Shown: positions 51,943 through 60,801, counted from the first letter of the stretch. The stretch: DNA of 64,000 nt from Pyrinomonadaceae bacterium (GCA_044229875.1 JBGASE010000001.1:29639-93638), one strand, 5' to 3'. Numbers and translations: made by a program. Notes: generated by a model not told the origin, from the sequence alone.

Positions 51943-51993
51943 AATTCGGATTCGTGAATTCGGATTTGGGATTTCGGAATTCGGATTTGGATC
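51943..51993. repeat. GATTTCGGAATTCGGATTTGG-type repeat block (opposite orientation to 52098-52349)
   Basis: AATTCGGATTCGTGAATTCGGATTTGGGATTTCGGAATTCGGATTTGGATC begins immediately after the rplS stop. Confidence 0.85.
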
Positions 51994-52036: not shown

Positions 52037-52349
52037 TGTTGCGCCGCGCGTTTCGCGTTTTTGTTTTACTCGGGGACGGAACCTCGACCTCAACCCTGAT
52101 CAGAATCCGAAATCCGAAATCGGCGCGATTCGCCGTTTCGTTTTATCTGAAGCGTGAAACTCGAACTCTTCCCCGATCAGAATCCGCAATCCGAAATCAG
52201 AAATCCGAAATCCGAAATCCAAAATCCGAAATCGGCCTGGTGTTGCGCCGCGCGACTGTTGGTTTTATCTTAACAGTACGATGAACCTCGAACTTTTCCC
52301 CGATCAGAATCCGCAATCCAAAATCAAAAATCCGAAATCCAAAATCGGC
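52037..52349. repeat. three tandem units of about 90-115 nt, each ending in (A)ATCCGAAATC reiterations
   Basis: Units span roughly 52037-52124, 52125-52240 and 52241-52349. They share TGTTGCGCCGCGCG..TTTTAT..GAAC(C/T)TCGA(A/C)CT..CCCGATCAGAATCCG(A/C)AATCC..AAATCGGC. The third unit contains the rnhB ATG. Confidence 0.85.
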
Positions 52350-52937
52350 ACGCTTTTTGAAGATCAGGCCCGACTCGAGGGGTATCGGTTCATTGCCGGA
52401 GTCGACGAGGTCGGACGCGGATGTCTCGCCGGGCCGGTCGTCGCAGCGGCATGTATCCTTGATCTCTCGAAGCCATTACCTGAATTTCTCAACGATTCGA
52501 AACAGTTGACTGAATCGAAGCGTTTGAAGATAGACGAAGAGCTCCGCGCCAACGCGCTCACGTATGCGATCGGCGAAGTGTCGGCCGAAGAGATTGATCG
52601 TACCGATATTCTCAGAGCAACGATGAAGGCGATGAAACTTGCGATCGAAGCGCTTTCGCCGCCGGCTGATTATTTGCTGATCGACGCGCTTCGTTTGAAG
52701 GAACTGCTTTTGCCGCAAAAGGCGATCATCAAAGGCGACGCAACATCGGTCTCAATCGCCGCCGCGTCGATCATCGCCAAAACCTATCGCGACAATCTGA
52801 TGCGCGATCTCGCACGGGTGCATCCCGAATACGGATTCGAAAAACACGTCGGCTACGGAACGAAAGCACATTTCGACGCGATCAAACAGCACGGCGCATG
52901 CGATTTTCACCGCCGAAGTTTCAAAGGAGTTGTCTGA
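52281..52937 (+). CDS. rnhB: ribonuclease HII
   Basis: 218 aa. IAGVDEVGRGCLAGPVVAAA, DSKQLTESKR, and a C-terminal HRRSF. The first ~22 residues are encoded by the repeat unit, and no alternative in-frame start was seen. Confidence 0.9.
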   Translation: MNLELFPDQNPQSKIKNPKSKIGTLFEDQARLEGYRFIAGVDEVGRGCLAGPVVAAACILDLSKPLPEFLNDSKQLTESKRLKIDEELRANALTYAIGEVSAEEIDRTDILRATMKAMKLAIEALSPPADYLLIDALRLKELLLPQKAIIKGDATSVSIAAASIIAKTYRDNLMRDLARVHPEYGFEKHVGYGTKAHFDAIKQHGACDFHRRSFKGVV

Positions 52938-55212: not shown

Positions 55213-56037
55213 ATGCGCGAAAAATTGATAGAACTCATATTGGAACGGCTTGACCGCGACGCGGATGCGATCAGGAACGATTTTCATAGCGACAAAGGGA
55301 TCCAGACACGCTTTACGGCGATCGACGGCTTGTTTCCCGATGACATTGCGCATCGTATCTATGAATCGTTTCCGCGCTTTGACCAAATGCGCCTTCTCGA
55401 CAGTTTTCGCGAGAAAAAATATACGTCGAAGGATTTTGACAGTTTTGATCCGTTGATGAAAGACGCGACGTTCGCGTTTCAGGACGAGCGCGTCGTCAAT
55501 CGCGTTGCGGAACTCACCGGGATCGAAGACCCGCACGGCGATCCGCATCTCTACGCCGGCGGATTGAGCGCGATGGCGACCGGACATTTCCTTAATCCGC
55601 ATCTCGACAACTCGCATGACGGCGAACGAAAGAACTATCGCGTCCTGAATCTGCTGTATTACGTGACGCCTGGCTGGAAGTCAGAGAACGGCGGAAATCT
55701 CGAGCTGTGGGACGAATCCGTCAGAAATTCGATCGAAATCCCAAGCCTTTTCAACCGGCTCGTGCTGATGGGGACCAACGACAAATCGTATCACTCGGTA
55801 AATGAAGTAAAGGTCGAACAGCCGCGCTGCTGCGTTTCGAACTATTATTTTTCGCCGCATTCGCCCAACGGCTACGAAACGTTTCACGTCACATACTTTC
55901 AGGCGCGACCTGAACAAACATTCCGCCGGCTTGTGACCCGCGTCGACAGCGGACTTCGTTCCGCCGTCCGGAAGGTCGTTAAAGACGGCTTCGCAAAGCG
56001 AGACGTTTACGACGGCGACGACGCGAAGAAAAACTAG
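55213..56037 (+). CDS. 2OG-Fe(II) oxygenase (prolyl 4-hydroxylase-like)
   Basis: 274 aa. HxD...H facial triad context (FLNPHLDNSHDG...GGNLELWD...SYHSVNEV). TATAAT at about 55196-55201 lies only 11 nt upstream of the ATG. Confidence 0.8.
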   Translation: MREKLIELILERLDRDADAIRNDFHSDKGIQTRFTAIDGLFPDDIAHRIYESFPRFDQMRLLDSFREKKYTSKDFDSFDPLMKDATFAFQDERVVNRVAELTGIEDPHGDPHLYAGGLSAMATGHFLNPHLDNSHDGERKNYRVLNLLYYVTPGWKSENGGNLELWDESVRNSIEIPSLFNRLVLMGTNDKSYHSVNEVKVEQPRCCVSNYYFSPHSPNGYETFHVTYFQARPEQTFRRLVTRVDSGLRSAVRKVVKDGFAKRDVYDGDDAKKN

Positions 56038-56172: not shown

Positions 56173-56577
56173 ATGAACTATTGGCTGTTGAAACAGGAAC
56201 CGACGTCATATTCGTTCGAGGATCTGATGCATGACGGAAAGACCGACTGGACCGGCGTCCGGAACTTTCAGGCCCGCAATTTTCTTCGTGAGATGAAGGT
56301 CGGAGACGAAGTGCTTTTCTATCATTCGGGTTCGGTCAAAGCCGTCGTCGGGAAGGCGAAGATCTCGCGCGAAGCATATCCAGATCCGACGGCGACTGAC
56401 GATGGCTGGATCTGTGTCGATATTGAGGCGATCGGGCCGGTTGCTAAACCGATCACGCTCGACGTGATCAAGGCTGAGCCGGAACTCGCAAACATGATGC
56501 TCATCAAGCAGGGGCGATTGTCGGTTTCAAAGGTTACCGCGGCGGAGTTTGCGGTGATCGAACGTCTTTCGGCGTGA
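56173..56577 (+). CDS. EVE (PUA-like) domain protein
   Basis: 134 aa. MNYWLLKQEPTSYSFEDLMHDGKTDWTGVRNFQARNFLREMKVGDEVLFYHS. Confidence 0.9.
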   Translation: MNYWLLKQEPTSYSFEDLMHDGKTDWTGVRNFQARNFLREMKVGDEVLFYHSGSVKAVVGKAKISREAYPDPTATDDGWICVDIEAIGPVAKPITLDVIKAEPELANMMLIKQGRLSVSKVTAAEFAVIERLSA

Positions 56578-56622: not shown

Positions 56623-57777
56623 TCACAGTTTCGAGATTGCTTTGAGCGCGGTGGCGAACGCCCCGGGGTCTTCCTGCGGCCGGCACGAAACCGCGCGGTC
56701 ATCGACGAAAGCGATTGCGAGCGGTTTTCCGAATCCGGAATAAATCTCGTCAAACGGAAGCTCGTGGCGCTGAAACCAGCGCTCGATGTGGTTCCTGAGC
56801 TTGGCGACCTCGTCGGCTCGCAGAGTCTCCGGATTGATGCGCGAGGTGTAAACCACGATTCTGAACTTCTTTTTGATCTCGGTCAGAAACTCACGTGCGC
56901 CGTCGATCGGATCCCCGATCTTCTCAAGTCCCTTCCAACCGCTGTAACTTGCGATAACTGAGTCTAGATCGACGCAAACCGCCGAACGGTGACGGGCTTT
57001 CGGTTTTTTCCGAACCTGTTTCGGGCGTTCGATCGCCGGCAGCGGCATCGGCCGCAGCGAGATCAGATGTTCGATCGCCGAAATTCCCTCGATCCAGGGC
57101 TCATCGGGATCGTCATCACTCCAAACCTTCGAAAAATGCTGATGCGTATGATGGCGTCCCGGCATCCGCAGCCATTTTCCGAGCCCGTCAAGCCGCTCCG
57201 ATGACGGAAAAAGCTCAGGCGCCTGTTTGAGACCGAGTTCATTCCAATCGGAAGTCAATTGTGAAAGATACCTGAAGACATCGGCCAACGGATATGGGCG
57301 GTCGAGAAGACAAATCACATGTAAACCGCCAAAACCGTTTGAATCGACGATGCACGGATCGAGCATTTCGCCGCGCATCTTCTGAAACCAGCGACTTGCG
57401 GCGGCGAAATTCGCCCGTGTCTTCTCATGAAAATCCTCGGGATCGTGAACGTCGAGATCGATCGCGAACCATTTGCATGTTTCGTCCTCTGAGACGAGGT
57501 GAAGCCCGATCAGATGTCCCGCCTTCAGTCCCTTGAAATGGCGGATCAGCTTTTCATGCGAGACAAAGTCCTTTTTCTGTTCGCGAAGCTCCTTCACCGG
57601 CAATGTCACGGCGCTTACTTTCGAGCCGAGAACGGTGTTCTTTACGGTATATTGCCCCCAAACATCGAAGCGGTTGACGAGCCGTTCCATCGCCCAATCC
57701 GCCAAACGCTCGGCGTTCTCGCGCCATTCGGCAGCGATCCATCGCAGATGCGGATCGTTGAAAATCTCGTCGATCAA
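56623..57777 (-). CDS. archaeo-eukaryotic primase-polymerase (AEP/Prim-Pol) domain fused to a C-terminal HAD-type phosphatase
   Basis: 384 aa. The TTG start overlaps the ligase stop (TTGA). AEP motifs WFAIDLDVHD, NGFGGLHVICLL, WLRMPGRHH. Basic linker RPKQVRKKPKARHR. HAD motifs VDLDSV (I), VVYTSR (II), GFGKP (III), FVDDR (IV). Confidence 0.75.
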   Translation of the reverse strand: MIDEIFNDPHLRWIAAEWRENAERLADWAMERLVNRFDVWGQYTVKNTVLGSKVSAVTLPVKELREQKKDFVSHEKLIRHFKGLKAGHLIGLHLVSEDETCKWFAIDLDVHDPEDFHEKTRANFAAASRWFQKMRGEMLDPCIVDSNGFGGLHVICLLDRPYPLADVFRYLSQLTSDWNELGLKQAPELFPSSERLDGLGKWLRMPGRHHTHQHFSKVWSDDDPDEPWIEGISAIEHLISLRPMPLPAIERPKQVRKKPKARHRSAVCVDLDSVIASYSGWKGLEKIGDPIDGAREFLTEIKKKFRIVVYTSRINPETLRADEVAKLRNHIERWFQRHELPFDEIYSGFGKPLAIAFVDDRAVSCRPQEDPGAFATALKAISKL

Positions 57778-59240
57778 GCGAACCTCTCCCAGCCCTTTTT
57801 GACGTTCTTATCGACCATATCGGCAAAAAACGCGTTCGCCTGCTCGATCGTGTTCGCGGGGGTGATGTTTCGTGCTATCGGTTCGGCGCGGCCCGAACTG
57901 AAATCCGTGTAATAGACGACGAACGGCAAAAACTCGCGGGACGCTTCCTTGTTTGTCTTCCAGAGAATGAACTTTCGGACCATCATCTTGTCACCCTGCT
58001 TCTTGGTGTAAACGACGCGCTCGACCAGTTCCGACTTCGGAAGCTGAATATCCTCAACCTTGACGTCGACATCGGGAACCGGAACGATGCTGTCGATCTG
58101 CCGGATGTTGATATCGGCGAGCGATGCGCGTTTGTCTTCACGAAGCCTGACAAACTGTGGCGAAATGATGCTCACAAACGGCAGTCGCCGGCAAGCGACC
58201 CAACGCGCGTCGTCGGGCTGCCAGTCGATCACCATCCGGTTGATCTCGCCGCCGCGCGCTTTTTCCGAGATGATGTCGAGACATTTCATCTCAATGACAT
58301 ATTTCGGACGGACCATTTCATACGCGACGTGATCCGAGTTGACCTCGGTATAGTTCGACGGGGCGACGCTGTCCTTTAGCTCAAGAAACAGATCGCGCCG
58401 TTCCTTCTCGGAAAATCCGCCGCCGACGCGCGTCAGGATGTGATACGTTTCGTCGGGTCGTTTGACGCCGACAAGCAGATCGTGAAGGAGTCCCTTGCGG
58501 TCGTCAACGCTTTCGCTGAACCCGATCACCGCGGCGTCGATCGAGTGCGTCGGTTTGATCTTCCAGCCGCCCTGTTCACCCCAGACGACAAGCCCTTCGG
58601 AGTTCTCGGTCAAAACCCAGTCATGATAAAGCTCTCCAACGTCGCCGGATGATTCGGCTTTCTGAAAATCGACGACCCGCACGAGCTTTCCGCCGTCGAA
58701 AATCCTCGCCAGCCGTTCAAGCTGGGCCGACCAGTCAGTGATCGTCGAATCATCGATTTCAACAACTGCAAACGGCGCCAGCGAGATGTCATTGAGTTCA
58801 TCGGCATCGCGCGGATTTCGAATCACGCGTATCGCATCATGGACGCGTTCGCGACCGTCCTGACGTTTTCGGTGAAACAATTCGCAGGCGATGATCGCCG
58901 ACCGGACGCCGGCCGATCGGAGGCGCTCAACCGCCTCGGCGATGCACGGCAGCCCGACGCGCACCGTGCCGCCGGGGTTGACCGTGAGCGCTTCGCCTTC
59001 ATCGAAACAAAGAAGACAGAATTCACCGTCGATCTTGCGGGTGACCACGAACGTCCCGCTGCGCGGGATCTTCTCGCCGATCTCATCGCCGTTTGTCGGA
59101 TAGAGCATCCCGCTCAGCCGTCGTTTGAAATCCTGCGCCTTGATCTGCAGCGAGAAATTATCGAGCGCGGTCGCCGGCCCGATCATGTAACCGCCAAGCT
59201 TTTGAGTAAATTGCGCGACGTCGTGCTTGAGCGAGATCAT
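57774..59240 (-). CDS. minimal ATP-dependent DNA ligase with about 110-aa C-terminal extension (possibly WGR-like)
   Basis: 488 aa. Motif I TRKIDGEF (Lys69), III IIACELF, IV EGLVVW, V GWKIKP, an OB region, and motif VI-like FVRLREDK. The tail FILWKT...YYTDFSSGRAEPIARNI...EQANAFFADMVDKNVKKGWERF resembles WGR. Confidence 0.8.
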   Translation of the reverse strand: MISLKHDVAQFTQKLGGYMIGPATALDNFSLQIKAQDFKRRLSGMLYPTNGDEIGEKIPRSGTFVVTRKIDGEFCLLCFDEGEALTVNPGGTVRVGLPCIAEAVERLRSAGVRSAIIACELFHRKRQDGRERVHDAIRVIRNPRDADELNDISLAPFAVVEIDDSTITDWSAQLERLARIFDGGKLVRVVDFQKAESSGDVGELYHDWVLTENSEGLVVWGEQGGWKIKPTHSIDAAVIGFSESVDDRKGLLHDLLVGVKRPDETYHILTRVGGGFSEKERRDLFLELKDSVAPSNYTEVNSDHVAYEMVRPKYVIEMKCLDIISEKARGGEINRMVIDWQPDDARWVACRRLPFVSIISPQFVRLREDKRASLADINIRQIDSIVPVPDVDVKVEDIQLPKSELVERVVYTKKQGDKMMVRKFILWKTNKEASREFLPFVVYYTDFSSGRAEPIARNITPANTIEQANAFFADMVDKNVKKGWERFA

Positions 59241-59953
59241 TCCGCGACCTCCACCTGGCTGACCTTCGGGGCCTTGAATTCCATGTTTGAAAGATGGAGC
59301 AGCAGCAGATACTTTTCGCCCTCGACACGACCTTCGAGAAATCCGCGATAGGGTTTTCCGCCGCGTTGGAAGATCAGCGGCTGATTGCCCTTTCCGGCGC
59401 CGAGAATCATGAAAGAGTCGTTCTCGTCGAGTTCCCGGGCGATTTCGTAAAGGAAATCATAAGTCAGGCCGTTGATGTGCGTGATCTGCTTCATGCCGGT
59501 AAAAATGAATTTCCGGACCGCCTCGCACTTTTTGATGAACTTCCCTGTCCAGATCAACGGGATATCGGAGTTGGTGTTTTGCGGCTCGACCTTACGCGGT
59601 CGCCGCTCTTTCAGATTTCCTGCGGCATCGGTTACGACTTCGAATTCCTCGACGTGATATGACAGTTCGCCGTCGACCGCATAAACCCTCGACGTTTCAG
59701 TCAAAAGTTTTCCGAAAAGCTCGAAGTCGATTTCCGGATCGGAATCGGCAATCGCTTTTCCAAGTTCGTCCAGTTCACCCTCAAACTCTTTCAGCAGTTT
59801 CGGGGTTGAGTGTTTGGCATCGCACTGAAGCAAACGGACGGTTTTCGTTTCACGGCGATTTTCATCGAGCCATCTGATGACTCTTTTCGGGCGGACGCCG
59901 AGCAACGAAACGCGGGCGTCACGGCGGTTCTTGTTGGCGAGATTGATCGGCAT
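59237..59953 (-). CDS. unknown 238-aa protein, first gene of the ligase/AEP operon
   Basis: ATG start. Its stop overlaps the ligase ATG (ATGA). No motif recognised, and it does not resemble Ku (no MRAIWKG..FGLV-type N-terminus). Confidence 0.6.
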   Translation of the reverse strand: MPINLANKNRRDARVSLLGVRPKRVIRWLDENRRETKTVRLLQCDAKHSTPKLLKEFEGELDELGKAIADSDPEIDFELFGKLLTETSRVYAVDGELSYHVEEFEVVTDAAGNLKERRPRKVEPQNTNSDIPLIWTGKFIKKCEAVRKFIFTGMKQITHINGLTYDFLYEIARELDENDSFMILGAGKGNQPLIFQRGGKPYRGFLEGRVEGEKYLLLLHLSNMEFKAPKVSQVEVAE

Positions 59954-60024: not shown

Positions 60025-60801
60025 TTGGATAAGTTTTCACTTCCAAAAACGTTCGATCATCGCGGTTTCCTGCGGTTCTACTTAGCCGTCGAATGCGTTG
60101 ATGCGATCTCCGCGGGGGTCTGGATTGAGCCGTTAAACGCACTTATTACTGAGTTTAGCGAAGACGAACTGGAAATGATCTCGGATCGCGTCGCGTTGGA
60201 CTCCCGGCTTCAAGCTCATCGCCGCACGTCGCTTATGGAACTCGATCGCCGCGTCCGCGGGTCGCGTCATTTTGGCGAGCTTGATCTGGCGATCACGGAT
60301 TTTGAGCGGCGTTATTTCTGTGAATCTGAGAACGGCGGATGTGTCCGCTGCGGACGCCCGTCGGATGTTGGCGGACCGCTTTGCTCGTCGTGGTTCGGCG
60401 CACCGGAAACAAAACCTGAGGAACCCGTGTCGGTTGCCGTCGATCCGGCGCCGAAGAGCGCTCAACCTGAGTCGGTTCCTGGTTCAGATCCGCTGCTTGA
60501 GTATTTCAAGATCGCGCCGACGCCGGGAGAGATCGGCGGATTCGAATATGACGCACTTATCGATTCGGCCCCCGTCGTCGTTTGGCGGCCGGCGTGTGAG
60601 ATCGAACGCGATTTCGTCGATGACCTGCTCTGCGAAGCGGAAACGGCCGGTATTACACGGCTATTCTTGATCGCAAGAACCGATCTTGGTCCGGACAAGC
60701 TTCCGACCAATCCGAAGGTAGCGCTGATACTCCTGCCGATTCCGCCGGACTTCGGCGCCCCGCTGATGAATGTGATCGAAACCGACGTCGCCTACTCGTG
60801 A
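60025..60801 (+). CDS. unknown 258-aa protein, divergent from the ligase/AEP operon
   Basis: TTG-initiated track ORF; the start is uncertain. Central CVRCGRP...CSSW Cys cluster, a Pro/Glu-rich linker, and a C-terminal alpha/beta-looking block (VVVWRPACEIERDFVDDLLCEAETAGITRLFLIARTDL). Confidence 0.5.
   Translation: MDKFSLPKTFDHRGFLRFYLAVECVDAISAGVWIEPLNALITEFSEDELEMISDRVALDSRLQAHRRTSLMELDRRVRGSRHFGELDLAITDFERRYFCESENGGCVRCGRPSDVGGPLCSSWFGAPETKPEEPVSVAVDPAPKSAQPESVPGSDPLLEYFKIAPTPGEIGGFEYDALIDSAPVVVWRPACEIERDFVDDLLCEAETAGITRLFLIARTDLGPDKLPTNPKVALILLPIPPDFGAPLMNVIETDVAYS

Follow-up and report, generated by a model that had tools for sequence, protein, structure and literature searches.

We analyzed a 64,000-nucleotide stretch of DNA from a Pyrinomonadaceae bacterium (GCA_044229875.1 JBGASE010000001.1:29639-93638; hereafter the window, with positions counted from its first letter), which carries on its minus strand an operon of three genes, g1, g2 and g3 (56623-59953). 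These encode a protein of 238 residues predicted to adopt the Ku fold, an ATP-dependent DNA ligase of 488 residues, and a 384-residue fusion of an archaeo-eukaryotic primase-polymerase (AEP, or Prim-Pol) to a HAD-superfamily phosphatase. Structural modeling of g1, together with the activities expected of its partners, leads us to propose that the operon is a cryptic counterpart, built from non-orthologous proteins, of bacterial non-homologous end joining (NHEJ) and would join the ends of DNA double-strand breaks, a reading to which we give a probability of about 0.68. An earlier, sequence-only reading of the same region had seen in it LigD activities without Ku. The operon is best described instead as an NHEJ-like system of non-orthologous parts assembled around a sequence-cryptic Ku-fold protein.

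The case begins with g1 (59237-59953, minus strand), the predicted DNA-end-binding subunit. Searches of Pfam (E<=0.1), NCBIfam, PADLOC and PHROG gave no assignment for this protein, and a g1 profile was likewise negative against PDB sequences. An exhaustive profile search placed g1 in a discrete family that lacks annotation and comprises 566 representatives at 50% clustering. An AlphaFold model built from an alignment of 42 close homologs was poor, with a predicted local distance difference test score (pLDDT) of 56, yet all 50 of the PDB matches listed for it were Ku. With distant family members added to give an alignment of 68 sequences, the AlphaFold2 model reached a pLDDT of 93.9 and a predicted TM-score (pTM) of 0.76, and the structural assignment emerged only once the alignment had been diversified (pLDDT 56 to 94). 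When this second model was searched against the PDB with Foldseek, 53 matches were returned at E<=1e-3, and the 50 listed were all Ku chains, including Ku80, Ku70, Mycobacterium tuberculosis Ku (9i91/9ig8) and a bacterial Ku homodimer (8v53). The structural alignments are full-length, spanning 233-267 columns at a probability of 1.00, and those to bacterial Ku (9i91/8v53) have TM-scores of 0.46-0.48 and root mean square deviations of 5.4-6.9 Å. Among predicted viral structures (BFVD), the sole significant match was the Ku of Mycobacterium phage Dylan. The Ku core that it matches is characterized by a beta-barrel with bridge/pillar arms. On this model the Ku-core fold is predicted for g1 with high confidence, and the leader of the operon is no longer the unrecognizable protein that it had been taken for. 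The likeness to Ku is purely structural.

Other properties of the g1 family also point to Ku. The family is basic, with a median isoelectric point (pI) of 8.5 against 8.6 for canonical Ku. Five of its distant members (P0289, P0290, P0246, P0248 and P0242) end in long PAAKK-type tails rich in Lys, Ala and Pro, and P0289 matches Pfam HC2, a histone H1-like family, at 7.7e-16. Actinobacterial Ku carries a Lys-rich, DNA-binding C-terminal extension akin to these tails. The C-terminus of M. tuberculosis Ku has been described as such an extension (PMC9638933). A further family member, P0245 (L092:4916-6298), has a SAM domain as its C-terminal extension. Four g1 homologs (P0206, P0222, P0227 and P0235) carry the JGI label ‘ribosomal protein S24E’, which looks like a propagated mis-annotation in light of the Ku-fold model and the operon context.

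The second gene, g2 (57774-59240, minus strand), encodes the ligase. It matches Pfam PF04679 DNA_ligase_A_C with 37.6 bits over residues 249-370 and phrog_114 (ATP-dependent ligase) at 1.4e-12, and its profile matches the cores of archaeal and Lig1 ligases in the PDB over residues 60-323 (E 1e-18 to 1e-12), a range of E that extends to 1e-10 with Lig4 included. The nucleotidyltransferase, or adenylation, domain (residues ~60-240; 58521-59063) includes the catalytic Lys69 in a KIDG motif and aligns to the corresponding domain of 3rr5/2cfm. It is followed by an OB-fold domain (residues ~241-385; 58086-58520) that is covered by PF04679 and holds motif VI (RLREDK). All six ligase motifs are invariant in a 28-sequence alignment (K69 in KxDGE, E120, E215/G216, K227/K229 and R367/D369/K370). 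The protein lacks an N-terminal DNA-binding domain, as had been noted before: the profile match opens at about residue 60, after the point at which archaeal, Lig1 and Lig4 ligases have theirs. Against the NHEJ-ligase equivalog TIGR02779, g2 scores 32 bits where the cut-off is 227.75, and none of its 31 PDB profile matches at E<=1 is a LigD ligase domain. On these profile comparisons, g2 is not a LigD ligase ortholog and is closest to archaeal/Lig1-type cores.

What the sequence-only reading missed in g2 is a conserved C-terminal domain of ~95 residues (~394-488; 57777-58061), whose fold is unassigned and whose signature is MVRKxxxWKTNK...TDFSxxR...GW. This domain is basic (pI 9.4) and conserved across phyla, with 14 invariant columns in an alignment (A7) whose 16 sequences represent at least 4 lineages. 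Five isolated copies of the domain had no match in Pfam, and a cross-phylum profile found no relative in the PDB; by eye, it is a candidate WGR-like domain.

The third gene, g3 (56623-57777, minus strand), begins with the Prim-Pol domain (residues 1-245; 57043-57777). This domain exceeds the gathering score of Pfam PF22548 AEP-TOTE (33.2 bits against 27, residues 61-221), a family pre-assigned on most g3 homologs, and it has a weak match (1.3e-4) to the PADLOC model of the CRISPR-associated PrimPol. Its profile, searched against the PDB at E<=10, retrieved the Marinitoga CAPP Prim-Pol alone (7nqd/7nqf/7p9j; E 7e-7), with no match to the LigD polymerase domain (PolDom). These matches mark the g3 polymerase as CAPP/TOTE-type and not as a LigD PolDom. 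A Lys/Arg-rich linker (56992-57042; ERPKQVRKKPKARHRS), which corresponds to the variable, basic columns 270-310 of alignment A2 and differs in length among homologs, connects it to a capless HAD-superfamily phosphatase domain (residues 263-384; 56626-56991). At ~120 residues, the latter has no room for a cap. Its profile matches the HAD protein 1xpj (E 2.4e-7) and phrog_1238 (1.6e-9). Of the named families, TIGR01689 EcbF-BcbF matches best (4.9e-5, far under its cut-off), and weak matches were seen to phrog_415 polynucleotide kinase (E 0.043) and to TIGR01662 HAD-IIIA (E 0.039). HADs without a cap tend to have macromolecules as their substrates, which fits a putative role of this domain as a DNA 3′-phosphatase, and the HAD fold is also that of the 3′-phosphatases of T4 and eukaryotic PNKP. 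Pfam and NCBIfam find no LigD phosphoesterase (PE) domain in g1, g2 or g3, in agreement with the earlier proposal that HAD stands in its place.

Across 38 sequences, the AEP domain has invariant D107, D109, H111, H153, E188, R204, H209 and H210, and the HAD domain has invariant D270-x-D272, T311/S312-R313, K351 and D359-D360. Every ligase, AEP and HAD motif quoted in the sequence-only reading is present in the translations and falls on invariant columns of the family alignments, and the catalytic residues whose loss would have spoken against it (the ligase Lys, the AEP DxD and the HAD DxD) are all in place. Judged by alignment, the active sites of the ligase, AEP and HAD domains are intact. 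The term LigD-like is apt only for the set of activities, given the sub-threshold ligase score, the CAPP-type AEP and the missing PolDom match.

The three open reading frames (ORFs) lie at exactly the coordinates given previously, and the reported coupling was confirmed in the sequence itself. Both junctions are 4-nt overlaps of start and stop codons with a Shine-Dalgarno sequence upstream, and the genes are translationally coupled. At the g1/g2 junction (59237-59252), GGAGG (59248-59252) is followed after 7 nt by the ATGA overlap (59237-59240); at the g2/g3 junction (57774-57789), GGAGAGG (57783-57789) is followed after 5 nt by the TTGA overlap (57774-57777). Homologs that begin at the same residue back the TTG start of g3. 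A scan for promoters and terminators gave signal at or below shuffle expectation, and an Rfam scan of the window gave no matches. Divergent from g1 lies an ORF of 258 codons (60025-60801, plus strand) with no family assignment, which is conserved only in the three closest relatives, at 49-54% identity. Automatic gene calls on identical contigs retain only the C-terminal 124 residues of this ORF (60427-60801), so the intergenic region upstream of g1 may be either 71 bp or ~470 bp long.

The operon is conserved beyond this genome. When a single genome from each of 185,579 species was scanned, relatives of g3 were found on 201 stretches, 80 of which were examined. Nearly all of these loci belong to Blastocatellia (Pyrinomonadaceae, Chloracidobacterium and Aridibacter), and the remainder mainly to Verrucomicrobiales. 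Where at least 4 kb of upstream sequence was available, g1 and g2 were found upstream of g3 on the same strand in 49 of 54 loci. The order g1-g2-g3 was seen in all 49 Acidobacteriota loci with enough upstream sequence, and the five exceptions are all from Verrucomicrobiales. The expectation that the three genes would co-occur in other genomes was thus borne out by a conserved, co-inherited operon. The identities of g1, g2 and g3 homologs to the window copies co-vary (r = 0.96-0.98), and comparison with the three closest relatives gives a ratio of nonsynonymous to synonymous substitution rates (dN/dS) of 0.03-0.11, an approximate range since dS is saturated. The three genes look to be under strong purifying selection and vertically inherited within Blastocatellia. 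Recurrent flanking genes are of a housekeeping kind (BamA/Omp85, LptF/G, penicillin amidase and a CRP-family regulator), and no recurring integrase or transposase was seen among them. The operon is chromosomal, sits in a housekeeping context, and is syntenic and co-diverging.

Clustering of flanking ORFs revealed a fourth conserved gene, g0, directly upstream of g1 in 53 loci. It encodes a protein of ~203 residues (for example L045:7192-7803) that has no Pfam match and a strongly acidic composition (a pI of ~4.2 and a net charge of about -21), with a conserved acidic-hydrophobic tail at its C-terminus, [DE][DE][IL]xF[DGE]L[LMF], ...EEISADDLDFDLL. In the closest relatives of the window, g0 is uncoupled, ~1.8 kb away and on the opposite strand. 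Searches with custom hidden Markov models (HMMs) found that distant homologs of g1 and g0 all occur in a g0-g1-ligase triad in which the ligase keeps its special C-terminal domain. A GC-rich lineage (L090) has this triad without an AEP, and the lineage with the SAM-domain fusion (L092) has it with an AEP-HAD gene upstream and an Exo_endo_phos enzyme downstream. The triad is also present in L094, in the cyanobacterium Hormoscilla (L095), in Myxococcales (L097) and in a marine lineage (L098). By this recurrence across lineages, the evolutionary core consists of g0, the Ku-fold protein and the ligase. The three genes of the window had earlier been taken as the unit; this has to be revised, in that the AEP-HAD gene is a lineage-specific addition, typical of Blastocatellia and dispensable to the core.

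Individual triad loci have features of their own. In the marine TARA lineage (L098/L099; 1-4861, 8001-10770), ~3 kb that hold two genes without annotation (487 and 293 aa) separate the triad from a divergent operon of SbcC and SbcD. In Hormoscilla (L095/L096:8616-9328), the g1 homolog is split by a frameshift in both assemblies, the two parts covering HMM positions 3-158 and 156-231; the gene may have decayed into a pseudogene, the sequence may contain an error, or the frameshifting may be programmed. Directly upstream of g0 in L095 is a gene for an HNH endonuclease. In Verrucomicrobiales (L021, L025, L035, L039 and L040), the AEP-HAD fusion stands alone, without g0, g1 or the ligase, and is thus a self-contained module that can be recruited independently. 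The surroundings of these solo fusions vary and include M60 peptidase and RimK, as well as a divergent ~990-aa PD-(D/E)XK nuclease in L021 and L025.

A profile-profile comparison (hhalign) of g0 and g1 gave a score of 23.2 over 173 collinear columns with a shared RGGxxY..FLxG motif, at an E-value of 0.013. Reversed and shuffled controls scored at most 19.5 over at most 35 columns, and among the pairs tried this was the sole full-length collinear alignment. The associated probability is just 3.4%, which makes paralogy of g0 and g1 a possibility on these profiles. The same comparison of g0 with canonical Ku was negative. We tentatively consider, as a less likely extension, that g0 and g1 might be ancient paralogs forming a heterodimeric ring like that of Ku70/80, that the C-terminal domain of the ligase might dock on the acidic tail of g0, and that the whole might constitute an independent end-joining lineage, hitherto unseen, that is present in several phyla.

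In the mechanism that we propose for double-strand-break end joining, g1 would dimerize into a Ku-like ring that threads onto a broken end and protects it. Where g0 is present, as in most genomes, it may assist or regulate g1, perhaps serving as an adaptor by means of the acidic-hydrophobic tail. The HAD domain would remove blocking 3′-phosphates, and the Prim-Pol domain could fill gaps or add nucleotides across the synapsed ends. The ligase, which has no DNA-binding domain at its N-terminus and is probably positioned by the basic, family-specific one at its C-terminus instead, would then seal the nicks. What stays fixed across bacteria is the set of g0, g1 and the ligase, and the end-processing enzymes (AEP-HAD and Exo_endo_phos) are exchangeable. 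By analogy, the modularity seen across lineages in AEP-HAD, in Exo_endo_phos and in the adjacency to SbcCD matches the known modularity of NHEJ end processing.

A number of observations speak against this end-joining proposal. Over all comparisons, the TM-scores between g1 and Ku are 0.40-0.48, under the usual 0.5, a shortfall that one can expect where an intertwined dimer is modeled as a monomer and set against ring structures. Pfam gives no match of g1 to Ku (PF02735), and hhalign of the g1 family against an alignment of eight Ku proteins gave a probability of 0.1-0.2%. The Ku reference comprised eight annotated plasmid Ku proteins retrieved with an M. tuberculosis Ku seed sequence. An HMM of these eight scored that M. 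tuberculosis sequence at 230 bits as a control, and found nothing in the six-frame translation of the window (E<=10) or in 81 related loci. The sequence-only statement that the window holds no Ku thus stands for canonical Ku as detected by HMM, and fails for the Ku fold modeled for g1. Furthermore, g0 is absent from the whole 64-kb window (tblastn and HMM, six-frame), and no homolog was found on a 101,044-bp contig; this may mean an incomplete system, or a g0 encoded at another place in the genome. A search of 55 upstream regions for known LexA-box patterns and for enriched dyads and 7-mers revealed neither a DNA-damage regulatory motif nor another conserved one. The AEP of g3 falls in a Pfam family named for a conflict system. 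Finally, Ku-fold proteins with roles outside NHEJ exist, namely INTS13/14 and M1AP (PMC11377751).

Among known systems, the closest in content is the bacterial NHEJ of Ku and LigD, as in M. tuberculosis, Bacillus subtilis and Pseudomonas aeruginosa, with which the operon shares its set of activities in one genetic unit: a Ku-fold end binder, an ATP-dependent ligase, a polymerase of the AEP superfamily and a phosphatase expected to clean 3′ ends. In both, the gene for the Ku or Ku-like protein adjoins that for the ligase and the protein is basic, with Lys-rich tails in some members. In its motifs, g2 has what would be expected of an NHEJ ligase, being ATP-dependent, with its catalytic Lys and motifs I-VI, and linked to a predicted Ku-fold protein. 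Unlike in the Ku-LigD system, g1 resembles Ku in none of the sequence searches (Pfam, custom HMM and hhalign), the ligase falls outside LigDom and has a unique C-terminal domain, a CAPP/TOTE Prim-Pol replaces PolDom, and a HAD phosphatase probably takes the role of PE. Polymerase, phosphatase and ligase are split over two proteins by way of a novel AEP-HAD fusion, and the conserved core of other genomes includes g0 as an extra, acidic partner. Tests of NHEJ that are defined by sequence (Ku HMM, LigDom, PolDom and PE) each exclude the operon, and only those of fold and activity set include it.

Bartlett et al. reportedly described, in 2013, the Ku, Lig, Pol and PE of Methanocella paludicola as separate proteins. 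A nonconventional class of bacterial NHEJ has also been defined (PMC7719229). The operon resembles these split and nonconventional systems in distributing its activities over several clustered genes and in having modular, dispensable end-processing parts. Their components are HMM-recognizable orthologs of Ku or LigD; none of the four here is. Eukaryotic end joining, with PNKP and Ku70/80, offers a second parallel, in that a HAD-fold phosphatase, here the presumed 3′-end cleaner, works beside a Ku-fold end binder, and in that g0, should it be a paralog of g1, may provide a second, different Ku-like subunit. It differs in that the operon has no kinase domain and no XRCC4/Lig4-type partners and in that its HAD is fused to a polymerase. 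In Deinococcus radiodurans, an end-healing and sealing operon pairs an ATP-dependent ligase (DRB0100) with a PNKP-like protein (DRB0098) (PMC1997131). It too joins an accessory ATP-dependent ligase to an end-healing phosphatase in a stress-tolerant soil bacterium; unlike the operon described here, it has an HD-type phosphatase/kinase and a macro-domain protein, and neither a Ku-fold protein nor a polymerase.

The likeness of g3 to CAPP and TOTE proteins bears on the explanation that the operon is not for general housekeeping break repair but is a conflict module, against phages or plasmids, or a counter-defense module, in which the Ku-fold protein would cap invading or broken linear ends in the manner of Mu Gam, and the polymerase, phosphatase and ligase would modify or seal the ends of nucleic acids as effectors or for self-repair. 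TOTE denotes a conflict system of TPR, OB, TBP and Effector components (bioRxiv 10.1101/2025.09.15.676423). As described above, the AEP passes the PF22548 threshold, has a weak PADLOC PrimPol match and has the CRISPR-associated CAPP as its nearest solved relative. Some loci have SNase and HerA-like ATPase genes beside g3, L063 has an inserted methylase of restriction-modification type, an HNH endonuclease lies upstream in Hormoscilla, an EVE-domain gene adjoins the operon in the window, and the phyletic distribution is patchy outside Blastocatellia. We nevertheless consider this explanation unlikely. PADLOC gives no defense-system match for g1-g3 apart from the weak PrimPol one, and the operon, unlike CAPP and TOTE loci, has no CRISPR-Cas context and none of the TPR, OB and TBP partners, while having a HAD fusion and a setting with a ligase and a Ku-fold protein. 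TOTE membership itself was rejected, with no TPR, CSD or TBP matches in Pfam for g1, g2, the 258-aa ORF, g0 or other neighbors; moreover, g1 is modeled as Ku and not as TBP. The flanks are housekeeping genes rather than defense islands, relatives on phages and plasmids are essentially absent, and the apparent vertical inheritance in Blastocatellia, tight co-divergence and strong purifying selection also run counter to a conflict role.

Repair of RNA, by analogy with T4 Pnkp/Rnl or the bacterial PNKP-Hen1 system, seems very improbable. Here the HAD domain would heal 2′,3′-cyclic or 3′-phosphate RNA ends, the ligase would seal RNA, and the AEP would act on RNA. The HAD fold is indeed that of the T4 and eukaryotic PNKP 3′-phosphatases, with the weak phrog_415 match (E 0.043), and the logic of healing plus sealing suits RNA and DNA alike. 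However, Pfam, NCBIfam and PHROGs reveal no kinase domain, Rnl-type RNA ligase or Hen1 in the three proteins, the ligase has an OB domain and motif VI and is related by profile to DNA ligases (archaeal Lig, Lig1 and Lig4), and the Ku-fold partner and co-occurring SbcCD and Exo_endo_phos point to DNA ends. It is very improbable, as a further alternative, that the operon is what remains of an integrated mobile element, namely a replicative primase-polymerase and a ligase that would have served its replication or maintenance, together with g1 in the part of an accessory DNA-binding protein. Prim-Pols are common replicases of mobile genetic elements (PMC11724360), and stand-alone relatives of the AEP occur on two small viral contigs. 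Against this, no helicase, PriCT domain, integrase, partition or repeat features were found near the operon, its GC content (0.54-0.555) is that of the remaining window, its position is kept among chromosomal housekeeping genes, and its AEP-HAD part is dispensable to the core; the sequence-only reading had likewise noted native composition and no adjacent integrase or replication genes. In searches of 72,556 plasmids and 50,697 phages, g1 had no relatives, and g3 had none on plasmids and matched phages only via the small HAD domain. Of 2.9 million viral contigs (IMG/VR), one carries the triad, in addition to the two small ones with a stand-alone AEP. A mobile-element or phage origin was rejected as the main explanation on these essentially empty searches.

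The surroundings of the operon vary among loci. In the window, an EVE-domain gene (PF01878, E 1.4e-44; 56173-56577, plus strand) is convergent to g3, 45 bp from its stop, and is adjoined by a gene for a 2OG-Fe(II) oxygenase (55213-56037, plus strand). The EVE adjacency is retained in L001-L004 and L007. EVE domains read modified bases, and a functional tie of this gene to the operon is possible. In L001 (7546-10404), genes for an SNase and a HerA-like (DUF87) ATPase of ~780 aa directly follow the AEP-HAD gene; the HerA-like ATPase is also present in the Acidobacteriota loci L006 (3757-6111) and L007 and beside a solo AEP-HAD in Verrucomicrobiales (L039:11693-14134). The junction between the ligase and AEP-HAD genes holds a 312-aa ORF and an N6/N4 DNA methylase (PF01555) in L063 (7900-9746), and inserts of 0.8-3.5 kb in L064, L076, L077, L055 and L037.

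Elsewhere in the window, heptanucleotide tandem arrays (TTCGGAT/AATCCGA/AATCCAA, 4.6-7.6 copies) occur at 51945-51992, 52181-52233 and 52315-52346, immediately ahead of an ORF (52281-52937) that is RNase HII-like by eye and within the 5′ end of this ORF. They encode repetitive ‘IRNPKSE’ peptides in several frames. A low-GC, high-skew stretch at 44-52 kb is a run of small genes on the same strand and contains no tandem array.

The open-access literature that we searched describes neither this operon nor a bacterial Ku family that is cryptic in sequence, in line with the sequence-only reading, which knew of no described system of such composition. Surveys of bacterial NHEJ rely on HMMs of Ku and LigD and find about 22% of genomes positive and about three quarters NHEJ-negative (PMC7719229). 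Because these surveys are HMM-based, they would score genomes bearing the operon as lacking such a system. A methodological lesson is that diversifying the alignment is what revealed the structural assignment of g1.

The finding points to a Ku-fold family that is invisible to Ku HMMs and is always linked to a ligase family of its own, with end-processing enzymes that can be exchanged, in Acidobacteriota, Cyanobacteria, Myxococcota and uncultured lineages. If our end-joining proposal is true, template-independent break repair would be more widespread in slow-growing, desiccation-exposed soil bacteria, and the operon would be a natural case in which all four NHEJ activities come from proteins non-orthologous to Ku and LigD. 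It would also provide two possible tools, namely a new enzyme in which an AEP is fused to a HAD and a compact ligase whose accessory domain is new, and a bacterial system with possibly two Ku-like subunits, which would bear on the origin of eukaryotic Ku70/80. Should the more tentative heterodimer interpretation be true as well, NHEJ-like repair in bacteria would be substantially more common than HMM surveys show, and the Ku superfamily would have a deep bacterial branch hidden from sequence methods.

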